A stretch of 64,000 nt of DNA, from positions 66,809 to 130,808 of the IMG/VR virus record IMGVR_UViG_3300022555_003222. One strand, 5' to 3'. The stretch's first letter is position 1; each line of letters starts with the position of its first letter. Positions 52,997 to 64,000 of this stretch are shown here, one piece after another. The translations under genes and the position numbers were made by a program. Origin of the DNA: a virus. The notes under the pieces are model-generated. The model was given only the letters and a program-made list of their open reading frames with translations, searched no databases and was not told the origin of the DNA.

Positions 52997-54104
52997 CTGG
53001 GCAATCATGCCAAATTTGTATCCATTGGATAGATTTGTAGTCCTTAGATTTCATTTCTTAGATGTTTGTACTTACAAAGACGTTAGTTTCTTAGATGGTT
53101 ATAACTTACAAAACTGCTAGTTTCCTAGTTAGGTGATTCTTCTATTCCCCTGCCCGCCTAGAACATTAACATTATTTGCCCATCTTGCGTAGGCTGCTGT
53201 CGATCTTGCACGTTGACCAGGGTTTTTCTTTGCCCATTTTGCTGCACAAGAATGTTCTACATTTTCATGGCCGCAACATTCTAGGCATCGCTTGCATCGG
53301 GAGCATTGGCCCTCGCCTTCACCCCACTTACGACCGCAACCTGGGCATCCTTCTTTTAAGGTCATCTTAGCCATCAAATTTCTCCTTCTGGGAGAACTTA
53401 TACACACCGAACTTACATTAGTTTGGTGGAGCAGGTAGTTCTAGTGGTAAAACTGCGAGACTTTTGCATGGCAAACTCTATCCAAGATATGTTGACCATT
53501 TCCCATGTAGATCGGTCGCTATGAAAGTTTTGTACTGGCTCCAATATGCCGTCCATCTGAATGACATCGAAGTTTCGTTCAGACTCCTTGCGATTTAGAT
53601 TGTTATTGGGACTACGACCGTACTGAGTGGTGAAGAAAAGGATATTCATTTTCCTGTTATGCTTTGTGCGTAGCACAAAAGTTTGTGCATGATACCCGAA
53701 CGATAGCGTGAAGAAGAAAAGGATCGACTGGTTTTATTCAACCATGTCCGTCTTGCAAAAAACATGAATTTCATTTGTTTATTACACTTCAAAATGAGTG
53801 CGATCAGGGATTGCTTTACGTGGGAATATGCTAGATTCCTCCTTTATTATACGCCAGTTTTGACCATTTGTGAAAGGAATCATGGATTAAGTGTCAGTTT
53901 TGACACCTTATTGTTTACTAATTTGATAATGGATCTTATCATGTCGAATATAATGCGATACAATACATTGAATTAAATGATATAAATTTAGATCAAATCG
54001 GTCCAGAACGAAGTTCTGGACCGATTGTTAATTCAGACCTATTAGAATTGATTTATGGAGGTCTGGGAAGGTATTTGAAGGTCTGAACGGGTGTTTGAAA
54101 GGTG

Positions 54105-54406
54105 GGATATATCCTGGGGATATATGCCCGAAGATATATCCTAGCATGTATCCCAGGCGATATGGGATATATCCTATGCGGGGATATATCCTAGCCTATG
54201 TGGGTATACGGGCGGGATATATCCTGACGGATATGTAGACTTGTCTGGTAAAACTATATGAGTATTGAGTGGCGATGCCCATGTGCTTACAAGAATGTGG
54301 AGGGATAGTAGATTGCCATACACAATACGGTCGTATGTGCCAATAGGATTGGCGTCTATTCGAGAGGACAATTAAAGCGTGGTGCATGAACATCAGGGAT
54401 ATATCC
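54105..54406. repeat. Cluster of GGATATATCC palindromes
   Basis: Perfect copies at 54105, 54165, 54182, 54215 and 54397, plus degenerate ones. Confidence 0.9.
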
Positions 54407-55477
54407 TGACTGATAGGTAGAGATGAAGTAGGCCACCAAATGAATGGGTAGAACTAATGTTGGGATGTTTGCACGAATGGTCCAGCCATATTTGTTTACG
54501 AGATATAAAACATGGAACTGGTCGAGGCATCCAACAGCAATGTCTATTTGTTTGACAAGCTACAAATTGCATTAACATGGGATATATCTTAAACGAAATT
54601 TGTGAACAACCAATAGGAACTAGAGGAAAACCGAAGGTTCATACTAAATGGTAGTGGCATTTCCCAACTGTGTGACATTCTAAAGAAGAGTGGTATGGTA
54701 TTCGCTTCTATTGATGCTGGCACATGCCATGATTTCATTTGTTTTCTTAGGATCATTTTCATTTGTCTGAGGTGTGCTTGCCTTCTCCCCAACATCGTGA
54801 ACTTTGACTAAAGAGAATGGAATTGCGTTGTGATCTTCTTTTGTAATGCGATAACACACGACTTGAGTATTGCATGTTATTGTTCCATGCTTTCACACGA
54901 TGCGTGAATCCAACACCGGGATTGAGTGTGAGTTTCATCTACTGGTCTTTTGAGAGAAGAACATTCCTCTACGTCCACAGCAACTAGCTAATCGTTCTAC
55001 GCTAAAACATTGCGATTTGATTAAGGAGCCAGATTCTATATTCGTATGTTTAGTACAACACCATCCGCTTCTTGCAAAAGCGTGAGTTGCATATGGAACA
55101 AACCAAATAATGAACCAGAATGTTTTCAATGGTATGCCGATCCTATAATAAATGATCTGGATTGCCCTAGCAAAGTATGTTGGCTTTTGGCCTGTGTCAT
55201 TAGATGTCTTTCTTGATGAACAGATGCAAGCCAAGACATCCTCCACGCTTTTGATCTCCTACGTGACCAAGGTATATTCAGGGCTATTGCAGTTCTAATC
55301 TGAATAAGTTTCATTGTTTATTCCGACTGACGGTATCAATGTGACGCCAACAAAATGACCATGAGGCAAACATTCTGCCTGACACCAATAGATGGCTGGT
55401 CCATGTGCGACATGATGTAAACGGACAAGTTTGCCATCCACGACAAACAGTATTTTGAATTGCGGTGCGAAGCATTT

Positions 55478-56245
55478 TCATTTTGTCACCAGTTCTCCAA
55501 CCTTCAACCCCTGTCGCTTTTCAATTGTTCTTACAAATTCGGCCGCTTCAAGGAGTGCATCTGGTGTACCCGTATCGAGCCAAGCATAGCCAAGACCAAG
55601 AACCTCTACGTTCAATTGATCCTGTTTGAGATACACCTTATTGACATCAGTGATTTCTAATTCGCCACGGGCAGATGGCTTGAGATTCTTGGCAATGTGA
55701 ACGACTTGATTATCATAGAAATAGATGCCGGGGATAGCATAATTGCTTTTTGGCTTCTTTGGCTTCTCTTCAAGCGATATAGCCTTGCCATCTACAAACT
55801 CTACGATGCCATATCGTTCAGGATCGGACACCTGATACGCACAGATGGTTGCTCCAATGTTTTGATTGGCTCGTTTGAACAATTGTGGCAGATCACTTCC
55901 ATAGAAAAGATTATCGCCCAGGATTAAAATGCTGGAGTCATTGCCAATGAATTGTTCGCCAATAATAAACGCTTCGGCAATACCTTTTGGTGCAGTTTGA
56001 ACTGCATAACTGATATGTAGCCCCCACTGATTTCCATCTTTGAGAAGTTTTTGGAAGAGTGGTAAACTTTCTTGATCGGTGATAAGCAGAATGTCCTTGA
56101 TCCCTGCCATTTGTAGAACAGATAGGGGATAATAGATCATCGGCTTATTGTAAATAGGTAATAACTGTTTAGTCATTACCAAAGTCATAGGGTGGAGTCT
56201 TGTACCAGCCCCGCCAGCGAGTATAATGCCTTTTCTTTTTCTCAT
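55478..56245 (-). CDS. rmlA: Glucose-1-phosphate thymidylyltransferase
   Basis: [58 protein letters not shown]. Confidence 0.96.
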
Positions 56246-58870
56246 ATTCCTACCCTAAAATCCCAACTATGAATGTGACCCCTTGACCAATTAGAACACC
56301 AAGAATCATTTGCCACCCATGCGGCACTAATAGACCAGTATGATTAACTGCATTTTCCAACTGTGAAATTTATTCTCATCCCATGCGACTCCTACGACTG
56401 CTATGGCCTCTTCCATATCTGGATGTCATTAGTAGATTACTCCAAAGTGCGGAATACGGAAGACTAATGCTCCAATAGGTACACCAAAATGTTCCACCTG
56501 ACAATATACACCAATGGCGTGCCCTTGTCCAACAAACCGCTTGCGTTGTTGATTGCAGAGAGCTTTTTTGAATAATTTTCATCTTCTGCGATTCCTACTG
56601 CTGCAACATCCCCTTGTCCAAAGTGTAGAACATGGGAAATTGCAATTCCAACACATACACCAAAATGTTCCGCATGACAATAGACACCATTCTCTCGATC
56701 TAGTCCCACAGATTGATCGTTGGGTAATCAATGAGCTTTTATGAATTATTTTCATTGTTTTTTGCTATGCCACATTACCACCCACATAGACCAAGTTACT
56801 CTACGATTGCAACTCCAATATATTCCTGTAGTCCAACCGTTCGACCAACAATTACCCCATGCAAAAGCAGCTTTTCTACAAAGAACCAATGAACTTCTGT
56901 TAATTATTTTCATCTGTAACTCATGTGATGGCTCATATCCCAAACGTGCCAAGCACATCGACCTCCCTTAGTCGCCCAACTGCATCCTATTGTCCAGCCA
57001 GCCGACCAACCATATCGACATGAAAAAGCAAGTGTTACACTGTGCATGCCTCTAAAAGTTATTTTCATATTGAAGACAATTTAGCTATTAAATCTTCTAC
57101 CGTAATTATTGTACGCATTTGCTCTGTAGTCAACGCTCTTATCTCTGCATTGCGTTTCATGTTTTGCAGATCAGCGGAACTTAGTGTGGGATCTCTGGTT
57201 TCAATATAATTTTTCCGCATATACAGAGCTTGTATAATAAGGTTTCGCTCATCGACTGTTAAATTCATAATTTTGTCCTTTCAATATGTGAAAATGATTT
57301 TTCATCTGTTGTGTGACCAAGAGTTAAATGTACGATTACATGACCAGCCTTGTTGATTGCGATTGCCCCAATAATGACTTTGCCCCACCACTCCTCTCAC
57401 TATTGACTGTTTCCAAAAACAAGCCGACATATTATATTTGTGTTTTCTTTTTAATGTTCGACGTGATGATGGATGGCCAACCCACTGCTCTAGTTGTGGA
57501 CCAAATGTTCTAAAGATGAATTTCATGGGAAATACTTTCTAGCCCATGAAGAGCTTCCAAAAGCAGCAGACCAATATAATCGTCTGCTCATATGTAAAGC
57601 AACAAAAGACGTAGACCATCCAGCCGCCATTTGGCGGCTGGATGTCCAACAATCTGATTTAAGATTTTGTCGAATTGTCCACTTAGTTTTCAAAATCTGT
57701 AACTTTTTGAAAACATTAAATTAAAGTGCAATGACGATCTGAATCGTTGATTTGTAAAGGCGTAACTGATGTAGCCGAACAATCCTCTTTGACGACTTGA
57801 TAGCATGTTGTGAATTGCTATAAAGCGACGAAATTTCATCTGTACGATCCCAAGTTTAATTCTACATTGCGTCGTTGACCTTTACCGCTATGGTCAATAC
57901 TATGAATTGCACGAAACATACAGCATTGAAAACAAGCACTGTGTCTATCTAAAATACGATGAAGTTTGAATGTAAATCTCATTTTCTTCTCAACTTGCTT
58001 TGTCCAAAACAATCCACCCCAGTCCAATGACTTTTGCCTATAGCGTAACGGGATATTCTAGCACTCTTCATCATCAGTGTAAAGCAGACTGATTTCTTGT
58101 AATGCGGTCTGAGTCGAGTTGCGGTGCGAATCATTTTCATGTAAAACGCCTTGTCCTTCCTCTTCTGGCCGATTGATCCACAATAAAAGGCCAATTGGTT
58201 CCAAATCGCCTACCATCTGCCCAGCAAGCAGTAGCCCAATTCCATTGTGAGAATGCACGACAACGATCAGGTGGAAATCGCAAACGACGAAATGGAGTTT
58301 TCATTTTCTACCTTGCCATGATCTGCTGTAGCTATGACCAAAGCCTCTACCTGGAATGCGTATTTTACACAAATGAAATGAACGCAGATATCTTTTGCTA
58401 AATCCCCTGCTAATTGGATCAATACGTCCACGTTGTAGAATCATCTTGATAATGGCCTTCTATGAAATGATCGCAGATCAGATTTGAAACAACCATATGT
58501 TCCAAGAGACTCATTAAATCCATGTTCTGATTCATCTCGCCAGAAACCCCAGGTGGTGGCAAAGAAACTTTGTCCTACAACACCACGTTGCGATAAGGGA
58601 GTGTTATTTCCCCATCGGGAAACAGCCCAACGATTCCAAAGACTAGAATAGGTGGTCAAAGAGATCGAAGATTTGAATTTCATTTTAATGTGCTTCTAAC
58701 CAGTGTCGAAACTTAGAACTACAAATCGAGGCAATGGCTGTAGTGATTAATGCAACTGCTAGCAGTGGAAATAACAAGAATCTAATCACTAATGCTAACA
58801 ATGGCAAGCAAATGATGATTACCGGAAGCAGGAATACCCAAATTAAAATTTTCATGGATCGCCCTCCAAC

Positions 58871-59329
58871 CTATGTATCATACCCCAATCGTTTTAATGT
58901 TCTGTCTACTTTTTCTTCAACGCCATCTTCTTGTAACTTTTTATGATTCCTATACTGCTGATAATGAATTACCTCATGCATAGTTGTCCAAATCAATGCC
59001 ATCCATGATGGATGTTTTTTATCCCACAAATAAGGTAAACGACCGGGTAATATAATTTGACAATCACATCCGTCTATCCAAGCTAGACCAAAATGTTTTT
59101 TACTCTTTTTAGGTATGAACAAACCAGCAATGGCTTTGTTCATCTTCCTTTTTGATAATGTTTTGACTTCGGCATTAGAATGACTTAACACATAGCTATT
59201 CAAAATCAATACGCCGACCCGATGCCGGATCGGCGTGTCTTTCTGAATTTGTTTCAATAATTTTGCAATTATGTCAACGGATTGTGCTGAAGGCTTCCCC
59301 TCGATCTGAATCATGAATCCTGGTTTCAT
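58871..59329 (-). CDS. HExxH metallopeptidase-like protein
   Basis: TMHEVIHYQQY...QEDGVE. Confidence 0.65.
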   Translation of the reverse strand: MKPGFMIQIEGKPSAQSVDIIAKLLKQIQKDTPIRHRVGVLILNSYVLSHSNAEVKTLSKRKMNKAIAGLFIPKKSKKHFGLAWIDGCDCQIILPGRLPYLWDKKHPSWMALIWTTMHEVIHYQQYRNHKKLQEDGVEEKVDRTLKRLGYDT

Positions 59330-60615
59330 TATTGGTCCCTAGTGCTATTGCAATTGAATATGACAGCCCTTGCATATAACAACAGGATACCAAATTTTTT
59401 GAAAAAAGCCAAGAGGAATGTGTGCGACCTAGCAACCGTCCACGATTTTCGTGGTAACGAATTAACTCCCACCCATGATTCCGGTGGGATCGACCCAATA
59501 TCGAAACGTCAGGTGGAAGGAATTTCATCTACGGCTCGCAGGTACGGCAACGTGAAAATTGTGAGAAAGAGTAAACACAGTATATGTGCTTTGTGGAAGC
59601 CAAGAAAACATCATTCTCCCGAAACAGCTTGTAAATCGCCGGGGAACCGGATGGTATTGATTGGGGTAAATTCGACGAAATAGTATTTTCATGATTTACT
59701 TACGACTCACTGGTATGACAATATGGAAACCAAGAGAATTAGTTGCAAAAGTATATTGACTTTGTGGATGCCAAGAAAGTATGGCTGTCCTAAAATAACT
59801 TGTGTATGGTCTAGGAAGATGAGATTGATTGGGGTAAATCCGATTAAACAGTATTTTCATGATTTCATTCCATACGGCGAATTTATAGTAAATCCATAAG
59901 AACATCGAGAAAAGCGAGAATAGCTTTGTGGGTAAGGACAATGTTCTAGCCTGGAAAAATAGCTTGCATCTTTTCCGTTGTGTCGCTCATACCACAAAAA
60001 CACAGTTCTAACAAATCTCATGTGCTAAATTCCTCCATGTGAGCAAACGCCCAACAAATACCATTTTGCTCAATGTGGCCTGTAGCAAAAAACCAACCCG
60101 GTCGCCACGCAGAAACATAATATCTCTGATGGCCGTGTGAAAAGGCAGAAAAATAACGAGTGGTTGCTCCAAAACTACGTGCATTTGGACGATGGTGGCT
60201 AAATCTCATATTTTGAAACTTCCTGTGTTGCCAGCGGCAAAGGCGACACCACTATACCATTGGAAAGGTCGTGTGCGACTAAAAGTTACACGCTCTGCAA
60301 AACTCCAAGCCCAATAACCCAGCATGCTTTGGCTACGAGTACAGCGAGCCTTGCTAAAGCAGCAAGTGATGTCATAACTAGAACGGACACAATTGAATCT
60401 CATGGTCTTACTTTATAGCTTTTATAGCCACCCCCTGCAAATGCCGTCGTGCCATACGTTGTTGTACGCCTTGACCAAATAGTATAACAACCGTGAGTAA
60501 AATTCAAAGACCAAAATGCATGGTCTATCCAACCAGATCCGCCCAAACCTCTCCCAAAGCATTGTGCGGCCCTATATTCAGAGTATATGCGAACGATTGA
60601 TGGTTTCATAATTTT

Positions 60616-61983
60616 GCGGTCAGGAAACCTCCATATTTTTGCGTAGCAAAAATACTGCCGAAGGCAGCCCTTGTGGTGGGGGAGGAATGACCGCCTCCTA
60701 AAAATAATTTTGGAATAATTGTTAAAAATTTTGCATCAGCACTACTATATATAGTGGGTATATGATGAAGACAAGAACCATTAAAGTGCAATTGAAAGTA
60801 GATAAAAACCTGTTTAAGCCAACAATTCAGGCTTACACAGATGCTTTTAATTCTGTTTGCACTACCGCTTGGGACAACCAAGAGTTCAACGGAGTGAGGT
60901 TGCATCACCTTACCTATCACAACATTAGAGAAACAACTGGATTGAAAAGCCAACTTGCTATTTCTGCAAGAGTTAAAGCAACAGAGGCACTTACTTCTGT
61001 TCAAGCACTTAAAAAGAAAGGCAAAAAAGTTTCTTGTCCTCAAAGTAAATGTTGTGCAATTAGGTATGATGAACGGAGTTTGACTATTGATTTTGCCAAC
61101 AAAACAATCAACATTCTTACGCTTGGTGGAAGAATTAGATTGCCATTGTTTGTGCCGAAGTATTTCCAACAATATCTTTCTTGGAAAAAGTGTTCGGCTG
61201 ATTTGTTTCAAGTTAAAGGAAAAACTTATCTTCACATTGTTTTTGAAAAAGAAAGTGAAGATGTTCAACCAAACGGTAGTTATGTTGGAATTGATAGAGG
61301 AATAAAGAAACTCGCAGTAATTAGTGATAATAGATTTTTTGGTGGTGGAAGAATTAAACAATTGAGTGAACGATATGAAAGATTGAGGAGACAACTTCAA
61401 AGCAAGAAGTCTCGCTCCGCAAAGATACATTTGTTGAAAATCAAGAAATGCGAACGACTTATGCGGAAAGACATCAATCATTGTATTACTAAAAAAATTG
61501 TTGGAACATTGAAAGCAGGAACAACTATTGTTCTTGAAAAATTGACTGGCATTCGTGGTGGAGCAAGAAAACTTACTCTTGAAGAAAGACAAAATAAAGT
61601 TAAAACATTGCGTAAGCCACAAAGAAAAGAAGTCAATAAGTGGAATTTCTTTCAATTTGAACAATTTCTTACTTACAAAGCACAAGCAAAAGGTTGCAAT
61701 GTTGTATATGTTGACGCTCGTTATACTTCGCAAAGGTGTAGCAAGTGTGGACATATTAAAAAAGCCAATAGAAAGAACCAAAGTATCTTCAAATGTAGAT
61801 TGTGTGGCTTTCAACATAATGCTGACCTTAATGCTTCTAAAAATATCGTTCTCAAATATCTGGACGCTACAGGCTATCCAGATTGGGCAACTGTCAATTT
61901 GCCTAACAGCGGTTTAACAACTGCTAATGTTCCCGTCTAAAACGGTGCAACAAGCCCCTCCCCTTGCGGGAGGGGTAATTGAC
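60616..61983 (+). mobile_element. Non-autonomous IS200/IS605-type (tnpB-only) element
   Basis: Structured left end gcggtca...tgaccgc; right end aagcccctccc..ggaggggtaattgac; no TSD; removal restores the flanking ORF. Confidence 0.8.
60762..61940 (+). CDS. tnpB: RNA-guided endonuclease TnpB
   Basis: RuvC GIDRG / VLEKL / NADLNAS; Zn finger CSKC...CRLC. Confidence 0.95.
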   Translation: MMKTRTIKVQLKVDKNLFKPTIQAYTDAFNSVCTTAWDNQEFNGVRLHHLTYHNIRETTGLKSQLAISARVKATEALTSVQALKKKGKKVSCPQSKCCAIRYDERSLTIDFANKTINILTLGGRIRLPLFVPKYFQQYLSWKKCSADLFQVKGKTYLHIVFEKESEDVQPNGSYVGIDRGIKKLAVISDNRFFGGGRIKQLSERYERLRRQLQSKKSRSAKIHLLKIKKCERLMRKDINHCITKKIVGTLKAGTTIVLEKLTGIRGGARKLTLEERQNKVKTLRKPQRKEVNKWNFFQFEQFLTYKAQAKGCNVVYVDARYTSQRCSKCGHIKKANRKNQSIFKCRLCGFQHNADLNASKNIVLKYLDATGYPDWATVNLPNSGLTTANVPV

Positions 61984-62711
61984 CTTATTACATGCCGTTG
62001 AAATTTCATGCTTTTACAGTCTCCATAAGCAAAAGCAATAGATGCTACTGTATCACTAGGCTGCAATACACTATATGGCCCGCAATTCGCTGCCGAGCAC
62101 CAAAATTGATTATTCGTAAATGCAAAGCAATTTTTGTGTGTAAATTCAAAAGTTCGGCACTCTGCGAATGATGTTTTAATAAATTTCATCTGGCAACCCG
62201 GTGGTATCCTCGATAATCAAGCCTTGCAAATGCTGCACTGGCCCAAGATCGTTGCGTTGATAATATAACACTAAATGCAAATGGTGTTCTTGTAATGCTC
62301 ATGGTGCATCTTAAAGCATACAAGATCGAATTGCGACAGTCGTGCCGGAAGGCACGACTGTCGCCAAATGTTGTAGCTGTAATGATTTTCATATGCTTTT
62401 ACTTCCTCCTCTACGAAAGGAAACCATTGCCCAAGCGTTGTATGCATTCGTCATTCTACTATAACCGTAACCAGTGATCCAAGCGCACCAAAACATTCCT
62501 GCACTACGATAATTAGCTCCATAGTCGTGAGATAAACTAAAGTTTTTAGATTCAGGAAATGATTTAATGAAAAATCTCATCCCCATGTGCTCCTATCGAT
62601 TGTTTGGTTTGTCCAGGCAGATGCCCAGCGGCGTGATCGACTTTTGAAGTTAATACTGTATCCATACATGCCAAACAATGTGGTGTGCCATACACACCAA
62701 TATTTACGGGG

Positions 62712-64000
62712 GCGGCGTAAAGCCCCTACATTCCAAAGGAATGTTTGCTCTGTGAGTGAGGAAGTGAGGCGTAGCCGAACGACCGCATGAACAGGGCGAA
62801 CCTCTTTAGGGTAGTGGGATGTAAGCCGCATAATAAAAATAATTTTGGAATTGTTTATAATTTTTACGATTGTAATACTATATAAGAGTGATGGATAGAA
62901 TCACTCAATTAAAAATCACTAGAGAAAAACGAAAATCACAAACTTGTAAAGTATATGAAGCCAAGATTGATTATTCACATTTATCTAAATCTGTCAAGAG
63001 TCATTTCAGTGGTTTGTTTCGTGAAGCCAAGTGGTTCTATAATTATTGTCTTTCCCATGATAATGTCAATGATGCTGATACAACCATTCGCACTGTTCCA
63101 GTCAAAGTAAATGATGAATATGAAGATCGTAAATTATCCATTCTTTCATCTCAAGCAAAGCAAGGAATTAAAACAAGATTGTTCGGTAGTTTATCTTCGC
63201 TTCATTCTTTGAAAAACAATGGACATAAGGTAGGACGACTCAAATTCAAAAGTCAAATCAACTCAATACCACTCAAGCAGTTCAACAATTCTTATTATAT
63301 TCGTAATGGAAAACTAAGGATTCAAGGAATGAAACAATGGTTGCGAATCAATGGACTTGAGCAAATACCAAAGGACGCTGAAATTGCTTGTGCAACTTTG
63401 ATAAGGAAAAGTGGTGATTATTATATTCACATTACGACTTATGTTGAAAAACAAGAACAAGTAATTCCTGAAGCAATAATTGGTATTGATTTTGGTTGCG
63501 AAACACAATTAACTTTCAGTAATGGAATTAAAGTTCAATTTCAAGTTTCGCCATCTAAGCGTTTGCGTAAACTTGATCGCAAGATAATGAGAAATAAAAG
63601 AGCAAAGTCCAACAACAAAATCAAAGATCAAGTAAAAAGACAAAAAGAGTATGAGTATTTAACTAATAAGAAAAAGGACATTAGACATAAGATTATAAGT
63701 GCTATCACAAAAAACCATAAGTATGTTTGCTTTCAAGATGAAAGCATTCACGCTTGGACAATGAGTGGGCATGGAAAGAAAATTCAACATTCAGGTATTG
63801 GTGGAATAATTAGCGATTTGAAGCACAAATCATGTACGCCACTTGAAGTTGATAAGTTCTTTCCATCAACCAAACTTTGTCCAAATTGTAGAAATAAAAA
63901 CATACTTTTAATTAGTGATAGAGTTTATGAGTGCGAGTGCGGTTTTAGTATGGATAGAGACATTAAATCTGCATTTTGTATTCAAGAAGAAGGTTTGAAA
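62712..64000 (+). mobile_element. Second tnpB-only IS200/IS605-type element (right end outside window)
   Basis: Left end gcggcgtaaagcccc...gggatgtaagccgc followed by tnpB. Confidence 0.75.
62891..64000 (+). CDS. tnpB: RNA-guided endonuclease TnpB (partial, runs off window)
   Basis: Not in ORF track. MDRITQLK..RKSQTCKVYE; GIDFG; FQDE; FPSTKLCPNC...CECG..DRDIKSA. Confidence 0.92.
   Translation, partial: MDRITQLKITREKRKSQTCKVYEAKIDYSHLSKSVKSHFSGLFREAKWFYNYCLSHDNVNDADTTIRTVPVKVNDEYEDRKLSILSSQAKQGIKTRLFGSLSSLHSLKNNGHKVGRLKFKSQINSIPLKQFNNSYYIRNGKLRIQGMKQWLRINGLEQIPKDAEIACATLIRKSGDYYIHITTYVEKQEQVIPEAIIGIDFGCETQLTFSNGIKVQFQVSPSKRLRKLDRKIMRNKRAKSNNKIKDQVKRQKEYEYLTNKKKDIRHKIISAITKNHKYVCFQDESIHAWTMSGHGKKIQHSGIGGIISDLKHKSCTPLEVDKFFPSTKLCPNCRNKNILLISDRVYECECGFSMDRDIKSAFCIQEEGLK

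Follow-up and report, generated by a model that had tools for sequence, protein, structure and literature searches.

The internal proteins IPI-III of phage T4 come from a polymorphic locus; they are small and basic, have a short N-terminus in common and are otherwise divergent. Other parts of T4-type genomes, the hyperplastic regions, hold ORFan cassettes that are shuffled through PeSL promoter/terminator boundary motifs, as set out in two reports (PMC2839356; PMC4122927), and a third describes overlapping genes that are translationally coupled by termination and reinitiation at AUGA (PMC12548453). Here we analyze a chain of small open reading frames (ORFs), joined by such overlaps, on the minus strand of a 64,000-nucleotide stretch of viral DNA. 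This stretch, referred to throughout as the window, is the final 64 kb of the 130,808-bp IMG/VR record IMGVR_UViG_3300022555_003222. The record encodes a T4-type prohead protease (Peptidase_S77, 95.6 bits, E 1.7e-28), and the closest of 50,697 phage records is the uncultured 595-kb phage LR756511.1 (60% amino acid identity over the protease); for these two reasons the window probably comes from a very large T4-type phage.

The chain resembles PeSL regions in its T4-type phage background, its small genes without homologues and its gain and loss of whole cassettes at short conserved boundaries. It differs from them in that the units abut without spacers and without an intergenic promoter or stem-loop, the boundary repeat being the junction itself, and in that the products belong to one physico-chemical class (basic and aromatic-rich) instead of a mixed set. 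With AUGA-coupled genes the chain shares the 4-nt ATGA overlap and the frequent lack of an own Shine-Dalgarno (SD) motif, and it departs from them in scale: about 27 units are packed into 8 kb, with as many as eight junctions in a row without interruption. ATGA coupling is ordinary; what is out of the ordinary is that it is repeated in series through about 27 units. Like T4 IPI-III, the chain peptides are small and basic, with a short common N-terminus and otherwise divergent sequences.

Literature searches, supplements aside, found no description of such arrays. The chain ORFs are an undescribed class of strongly basic microproteins, arranged as a phage ORFan small-gene array. We favor, with a probability of roughly 0.55, the explanation that the region is one long, translationally coupled minus-strand operon encoding at least 27 lineage-specific basic microproteins, with rmlA and three ordinary small genes interleaved.

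Overlapping frames and their conservation

An earlier note, made from the letters of this DNA alone, had listed 23 coordinates at which minus-strand ORFs meet through ATGA overlaps. All 23 indeed carry ATGA on the minus strand, and an ORF of 47-91 codons follows in 22 cases; the exception, at 56376, opens an 11-codon ORF. One additional junction, at 57690, is a TTGA and is conserved in the related metagenome contig L001. Overlap of start and stop on the same strand, the hallmark of translational coupling, is present at every listed ATGA junction and at the TTGA junction. In nearly every unit the ATG sits 1-5 codons past the preceding in-frame stop, and the frame of each unit is exactly one behind that of the preceding unit.

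The tiling is far above chance: Between 56246 and 60609, minus-strand ATG ORFs of at least 40 amino acids cover 92% of the DNA. The plus strand of this segment reaches 29%, and 300 dinucleotide-preserving shuffles average 32% (standard deviation 9, maximum 58%). The segment contains 12 ATGA junctions where 0.07 are expected, and no shuffle exceeds one. Two smaller segments of the chain give a like result. A chain detector applied to the whole 130.8-kb genome returned runs of at least five coupled small ORFs only here, on the minus strand, and the longest uninterrupted run of junctions is eight in the chain, four in the rest of the genome and four in the 595-kb related phage. The latter has no comparable chain (its longest run comprises four ORFs of normal composition), and its bins that are rich in odd ORFs are off-frame ORFs within G+C-rich ordinary genes. 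The count of about 30 peptides first given for the region holds in part: 27 are of the odd type, and the others are rmlA, three ordinary-looking small genes and one uncertain ORF with a GTG start.

An SD-like 4-mer is found at 9 of the 27 chain starts, compared with 20 of 33 long genes and a background of 9.4%. Promoter-like and terminator-like sites are not clearly enriched in 53000-64000 (43 compared with 32.6±6.1 expected, and 15 compared with 9.1±3.3 expected, respectively). With few SD-like starts and no clear enrichment of these sites, termination-reinitiation along a single long transcript is the most likely mode of translation for the units: ribosomes ending at a UGA would re-initiate at the overlapping AUG. 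As two thirds of the units (18/27) have no SD-like motif, we place the promoter upstream of the contig end, from where the whole set would be made.

The frames are conserved at the protein level. L001 (2,957 bp) is 94.5% identical to window 60219-57221, and all 13 chain ORFs common to the two are intact in it, with unchanged starts and stops; junction tetramers are identical at each of the 10 junctions checked. The selection test was performed on 12 chain units trimmed to junction starts (2,099 aligned sites, 117 substitutions), leaving out two ordinary genes, the part overlapping the 152-amino-acid (aa) gene and the unit missing from L001. Substitutions are distributed over codon positions 1/2/3 as 28/21/68 (chi-square p 7e-8). 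Read in the chain frame, these sites have a Nei-Gojobori ratio of nonsynonymous to synonymous substitution rates (dN/dS) of 0.22 (Fisher p 5e-15); the remaining two frames give 1.36 and 1.52. The ordinary 152-aa gene of the same locus is equally low, with a ratio of nonsynonymous to synonymous differences (pN/pS) of about 0.22 to L001. Third-position bases of the chain ORFs (A.31, C.17, G.19, T.34) match those of the phage’s long genes. Substitutions between paralogues (30/30/44 by codon position) give a weak signal.

The chain peptides are under purifying selection at the amino acid level in the proposed frames, and we consider it very probable that the chain ORFs are real translated genes. 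The earlier note had proposed an undescribed array of peptide genes and had named dN/dS as a check. That proposal is borne out by purifying selection in exactly the proposed frames, together with a lack of relatives outside the lineage in the searches described below. Its further suggestion, a region selected for continuous translation itself, is not, since avoidance of stops alone would leave dN/dS near 1 and not at 0.22. The word diversifying is not supported either: an orthologue dN/dS of 0.22 speaks against mutagenesis being in progress, and neither a reverse transcriptase nor a template repeat was found in this record. The chain as target of a diversity-generating retroelement (DGR) thus finds no support in the record, which is incomplete: it contains no RVT_1 match, and the chain region has no translated similarity to the rest of the genome.

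A basic, aromatic-rich class of peptides

The 27 chain peptides are 47-91 aa long (median 58), and every one has a net positive charge (+3 to +13, median +8; median isoelectric point 10.6). They are rich in Arg, Ser, Trp, Phe and Cys and nearly devoid of Asp and Glu (19% aromatic; R 10.7%, S 11.7%, W 4.7%, C 3.5%, D 1.6%, E 1.7%). As comparators, 55 small ORFs of the neighboring early array display a median net charge of -4 and a median isoelectric point of 4.7. Lys or Arg occupies position 2 in 26/27 peptides and Phe, Ile, Leu or Met position 3 in 24/27, compared with 18% each in the comparators. This matches what had first been noticed, namely peptides with a K/R plus hydrophobic start and few acidic residues, exemplified by 56579-56755 with 9 Cys, 4 Trp and 1 Glu. 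The median grand average of hydropathy (GRAVY) is -0.36, and inspection of the translations by eye revealed no long hydrophobic stretch such as a signal peptide. Ser-X periodicity is likewise absent: Ser recurs at lag 2 in 20 cases, compared with 22.8±4.2 in shuffles, and the 27 peptides contain one S-x run of three pairs.

Most units are barely alignable with one another, as had been claimed, but some fall into three small, clear groups of paralogues: 56376/56579/56752/56910, 62389/61914/60400/60206, and 59525/59696, to which 59857 is joined weakly. Cys positions differ between paralogues and are not conserved. Iterated hidden Markov models (HMMs) built on a 29-sequence set link two groups weakly (E 1e-3 to 5e-3).

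Membership in known, unrelated families was checked as well, and the searches gave none. No chain peptide has a match in Pfam, PHROGs or PADLOC, and a profile of 10 peptides returned only itself or near-identical sequences from 1.84 billion representative proteins and from a word-indexed set of 5.8 billion. One peptide searched against 185,579 species genomes had no match, and 8 of 10 chain peptides are absent from a 15-billion-protein collection by exact-sequence look-up. At the DNA level, the 50,697 phage records contain no match except to rmlA. Searches of IMG/VR found no match for two proteins or for a 34-nt pattern, and Rfam found no RNA family. The 152-aa protein embedded in the chain, which has an HExxH motif, has no family match and no match in a sequence search of the PDB.

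Several points weigh against the operon explanation. The contig does not extend to the promoter or to the true 5′ end of the chain. The selection test is one pairwise comparison, with L001, and covers 13 of the 27 units; for the units outside 57302-60209 the evidence is tiling plus two near-identical public variants. An hhalign comparison of the two best paralogue groups gave a 7-column match with 3% probability; as this leaves the weak HMM link unconfirmed, a single-family origin of all units is not supported. The AlphaFold2 model of one peptide shows no confident fold (predicted local distance difference test score, pLDDT, 52), a protein language model scores the peptide at 57305-57526 within the range of shuffled sequences, the ESM Atlas returned no usable hit, and the amino acid composition of the peptides is close to that of the +2 off-frame translation of ordinary genes. 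Disordered proteins or very young genes would also fit this low pLDDT, the language-model score and the off-frame-like composition. The model of the 152-aa protein has a pLDDT of 36.6; both models are too poor for a fold search. Lastly, the function is deduced from charge and composition only. The uniformly high positive charge, the many aromatic residues and the lack of a visible hydrophobic stretch suggest that the products act inside the infected cell, where, being small, polycationic and aromatic-rich, they could bind nucleic acids or other polyanions and have a role in host take-over or in RNA/DNA handling. We put forward such binding as the function of the peptides tentatively, at somewhat below even odds.

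Cassette turnover and competing explanations

Comparison with L001 shows that the chain changes by whole units. ORF-internal insertions and deletions between the two are of 3, 3 and 171 nt, and the 171-nt difference is exactly one of the tandem paralogues 59525-59692 and 59696-59860 (56% identical), of which L001 keeps a single hybrid. Conversely, L001 has 125 extra bases exactly at junction 57527, which form a 42-aa ORF with an ATGA at either boundary, set between direct repeats (17-24 nt) of junction sequence. Whole cassettes are thus gained and lost exactly at junctions, and insertions and deletions between close relatives map to the boundary motif. The A/T-rich junction could serve initiation and at the same time supply microhomology for cassette exchange, and a requirement for A/T-rich DNA at the junctions, in re-initiation and recombination, may be part of the reason why the “MK + hydrophobic” start is conserved.

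Three further observations concern unit boundaries. Divergence from L001 is mosaic, with 33 substitutions in the 192-nt unit 60018-60209 and none in the adjacent 165-nt unit 59857-60021, which suggests recombination between lineages at unit boundaries. A public protein, P0008, is a variant of 56910-57068 with the same first 51 residues and then a different 12-residue tail that replaces the junction; the next cassette on its 3,242-bp contig is probably different or missing. Unit 61914-62189 contains, at 61990-62040, an in-frame “MKF” start motif (…KSMKFQRH…) where its paralogues have an ATGA junction, and, judged by eye, a small deletion seems to have fused two units before the neighboring transposable element inserted.

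What the peptides do for the phage can be framed in more than one way. The array could be a battery of cationic, aromatic-rich microproteins, a new class of effectors related to Sm-like/Ser-X modules, that bind, condense or sequester host or phage RNA/DNA and renew themselves by cassette exchange, with the junction sequence being stop, start and recombination site at once; we hold this to be rather unlikely. Rather unlikely, too, is a descent from the phage module in which an Sm-like protein is paired with a basic (Ser-X)n microprotein. The array would then be an extreme, repeat-free form of it, working with an Sm-fold RNA-binding partner encoded upstream. The lag-2 Ser count, within the range of shuffles, speaks against this, as does the lack of any LSM or Hfq match in the 130.8 kb, where the upstream end of the chain is hidden by a TnpB element and the contig end. 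Packaging into the virion is a distinctly poorer explanation. Internal proteins like T4 IPI-III, loaded into the prohead by a tag, could neutralize or protect a very large genome, and the T4-type prohead protease, the small basic peptides with their “MK + hydrophobic” start and 13 ORFs elsewhere in the genome that fit a T4-like N-terminal tag pattern all agree with it. Unlike T4 IPI-III, however, none of the 27 chain peptides fits the tag pattern of the phage’s own 13 ORFs, and even a loose hydrophobic-x-Glu site near the N-terminus is present in only 4/27. We also considered a “gene nursery”, in which the units would be young or selfish cassettes, spreading via junction repeats and doing little or nothing for the phage. 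The off-frame-like composition, the lack of relatives and of a fold, the low language-model recognition and the cassette turnover between close relatives are as this would predict. What makes it improbable is a dN/dS as low as the value for the 152-aa gene of the locus, with start codons, stop codons and frames all kept in L001. In addition, the +1 frame contains 64 stops, where codon shuffling predicts 64.4±5.9; as it is no more open than that, an older frame has left no trace.

The peptides are small, hypervariable from unit to unit and rich in Cys and Trp, and the array includes the HExxH-motif gene and a membrane-type peptide; these features could point to secreted or modified products: precursors of ribosomally synthesized and post-translationally modified peptides (RiPPs), toxins or membrane-active Arg/Trp peptides. 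We regard this as very improbable. The earlier note’s term “RiPP-like” is not upheld, as the shared N-terminus extends over only 3-4 residues (mean column identity 11%) and the 130.8 kb of this record, which is estimated to be 26% complete, yielded no radical-SAM, YcaO or LanC gene; nor do the unconserved Cys positions, the GRAVY values, the lack of a signal-like stretch and an HExxH protein without a family or solved-structure match favor it. Both the DGR and the RiPP explanations are without support because no reverse transcriptase, template repeat or maturase was found, in a genome of which three quarters are missing. Least probable of all is that the frames are not what is read, whether because TGA is a sense codon, because -1 slippage at each junction yields long fusions, or because the region is kept open for continuous translation only. 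The constant step of one frame from unit to unit would allow slippage, and the public 186-aa protein P0010 reads the frame of the first unit through two TGA codons as Trp. TAA and TAG, however, occur often in every frame, the junctions display no conserved slippery sequence, and the openness-only variant is excluded by the dN/dS of 0.22; the off-frame dN/dS of 1.36-1.52 means that sequence read past a TGA is not under protein constraint. Reassignment of a stop codon was rejected, as no frame is free of any type of stop. P0010 maps to window 62271-62831, derives from a 1,383-bp contig and looks like an artefact of gene calling with TGA as Trp.

A wrong-frame or pseudogene origin was rejected on the off-frame dN/dS and on the +1 stop count. 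Another frame reads a recurring “DEN” motif across the junctions, and codon log-odds do not separate the frames. The +2 frame of the chain ORFs has 100 stops, compared with 123±8 in codon-shuffled controls, and 0.2% of shuffles are that low.

Layout, phage context and significance

Features of the chain region are listed in Table 1, the chain itself in the order of transcription. The chain is cut by two different TnpB insertion elements of IS200/605 type (60680-61988 and 62832-64000), whose only common sequence is an identical stretch of 18 nt immediately upstream of each tnpB (60699-60716 and 62834-62851). The first has Pfam domains OrfB_IS605 and Cas12f1-like_TNB, and its extent was derived from similarity to L035, a 3.5-kb contig that is binned as an Altiarchaeales metagenome-assembled genome and carries the closest relative of this TnpB (78%).

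Table 1 Features of the chain region (window coordinates).
Feature	Position	Strand	Remarks
Chain unit, 84 aa (MRLTSH...)	62577..62831	-	First unit in the record; start abuts left end of second TnpB element
Chain unit, 63 aa (MRFFIKSF...)	62389..62580	-	ATGA-coupled on both sides; public variant P0007 differs by one residue
Chain unit, 68 aa (MKIITATT...)	62186..62392	-	
Chain unit, 91 aa (MKFIKTSF...)	61914..62189	-	3′ part enters right end of inserted TnpB element
IS200/605-type element, TnpB 60762-61940	60680..61988	+	Interrupts chain; borders approximate
Chain unit, 69 aa (MKPSIVRIY...)	60400..60609	-	
Chain unit, 65 aa (MRFNCVRS...)	60206..60403	-	
Chain unit, 63 aa	60018..60209	-	Intact in L001; 33 substitutions, 19 at codon position 3
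Chain unit, 54 aa	59857..60021	-	Identical in L001
Chain unit, 54 aa (MKILFNRIYPNQ...)	59696..59860	-	Paralogue of 59525..59692
Chain unit, 55 aa (MKILFRRIYPNQ...)	59525..59692	-	Tandem duplicate; single hybrid copy in L001 (171-nt gap)
Chain unit, 84 aa	59274..59528	-	56-nt overlap with start of 152-aa gene
152-aa gene, ordinary composition, HEVIH motif	58871..59329	-	Embedded in chain; no family match
56-aa hydrophobic (membrane-type) small gene	58685..58855	-	Embedded in chain
Chain unit, 80 aa	58441..58683	-	
Chain unit, 47 aa	58301..58444	-	
Chain unit, 55 aa	58137..58304	-	
Chain unit, 53 aa (MKMIRTAT...)	57979..58140	-	
Chain unit, 48 aa (MRFTFKL...)	57836..57982	-	
Chain unit, 49 aa	57690..57839	-	
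Chain unit, 56 aa	57523..57693	-	TTG start within TTGA overlap, conserved in L001
Chain unit, 74 aa	57302..57526	-	9 substitutions relative to L001, 8 at position 3; extra 42-aa L001 cassette just upstream
67-aa gene, ordinary composition	57065..57268	-	Weak ALTTAQ-repeat match, below Pfam cut-off
Chain unit, 52 aa (MKITFRGM...)	56910..57068	-	
Chain unit, 53 aa (MKIINRSS...)	56752..56913	-	
Chain unit, 58 aa, 9 Cys and 4 Trp	56579..56755	-	
Chain unit, 68 aa	56376..56582	-	52% identity to preceding unit
rmlA-type glucose-1-phosphate thymidylyltransferase, 255 aa	55478..56245	-	Pfam NTP_transferase, E 1.7e-71; ATGA-coupled to next chain unit
Chain unit, 56 aa	55311..55481	-	
Chain unit, 62 aa	55126..55314	-	
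Uncertain unit	54935..55246	-	Frame ends in ATGA 54935; GTG start only; about 120 nt overlap with previous unit
Chain unit, 59 aa	54759..54938	-	
Last chain unit, 57 aa (MKMILRK...)	54589..54762	-	
Second TnpB element, unrelated to first	62888..64000	+	Cut by contig end; hides upstream end of chain

The chain region (about 40% G+C) adjoins, on the upstream side in the direction of transcription, the early small-gene array, a G+C-richer minus-strand array of ordinary, mostly acidic small genes at window 20-53 kb. We asked whether the chain region could be host flank and rejected this: it has the strand of the early array and the G+C content of the phage’s structural half, and a homologue of its rmlA is also present in the 595-kb relative. 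The peptide without a relative in the 185,579 species genomes disfavors host flank as well.

IMG/VR labels the record “provirus”, and CheckV estimates its completeness at 26%. Most likely it represents part of a huge lytic-type phage and not a prophage. Against the label stand the size of the nearest relative, 595 kb, and the contig end, which falls inside a TnpB gene. Proteins identical to those of this record are also found on a 173,892-bp contig.

The palindrome GGATATATCC (at most one mismatch) occurs 24 times in the window, compared with 2.0±1.5 expected, at 54105-54589 and scattered over 22-52 kb. Eight copies are clustered immediately downstream of the last chain unit, and there are none within the chain (54590-64000); this cluster may form a regulatory boundary for the early array. 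A 34-nt tandem repeat (53054-53128, 2.2 copies, 83% match) is located between that array and the cluster.

These genes are conserved like ordinary genes, yet gene callers and databases miss them almost entirely. If such arrays are widespread among large uncultured phages, annotation lacks a sizeable part of the phage proteome, one that is physico-chemically coherent. The locus shows that a 4-nt start/stop overlap with an A/T-rich flank can bound modular gene gain and loss, and its approximately 27 small proteins are a concrete set for screens of nucleic acid binding, toxicity and host take-over.

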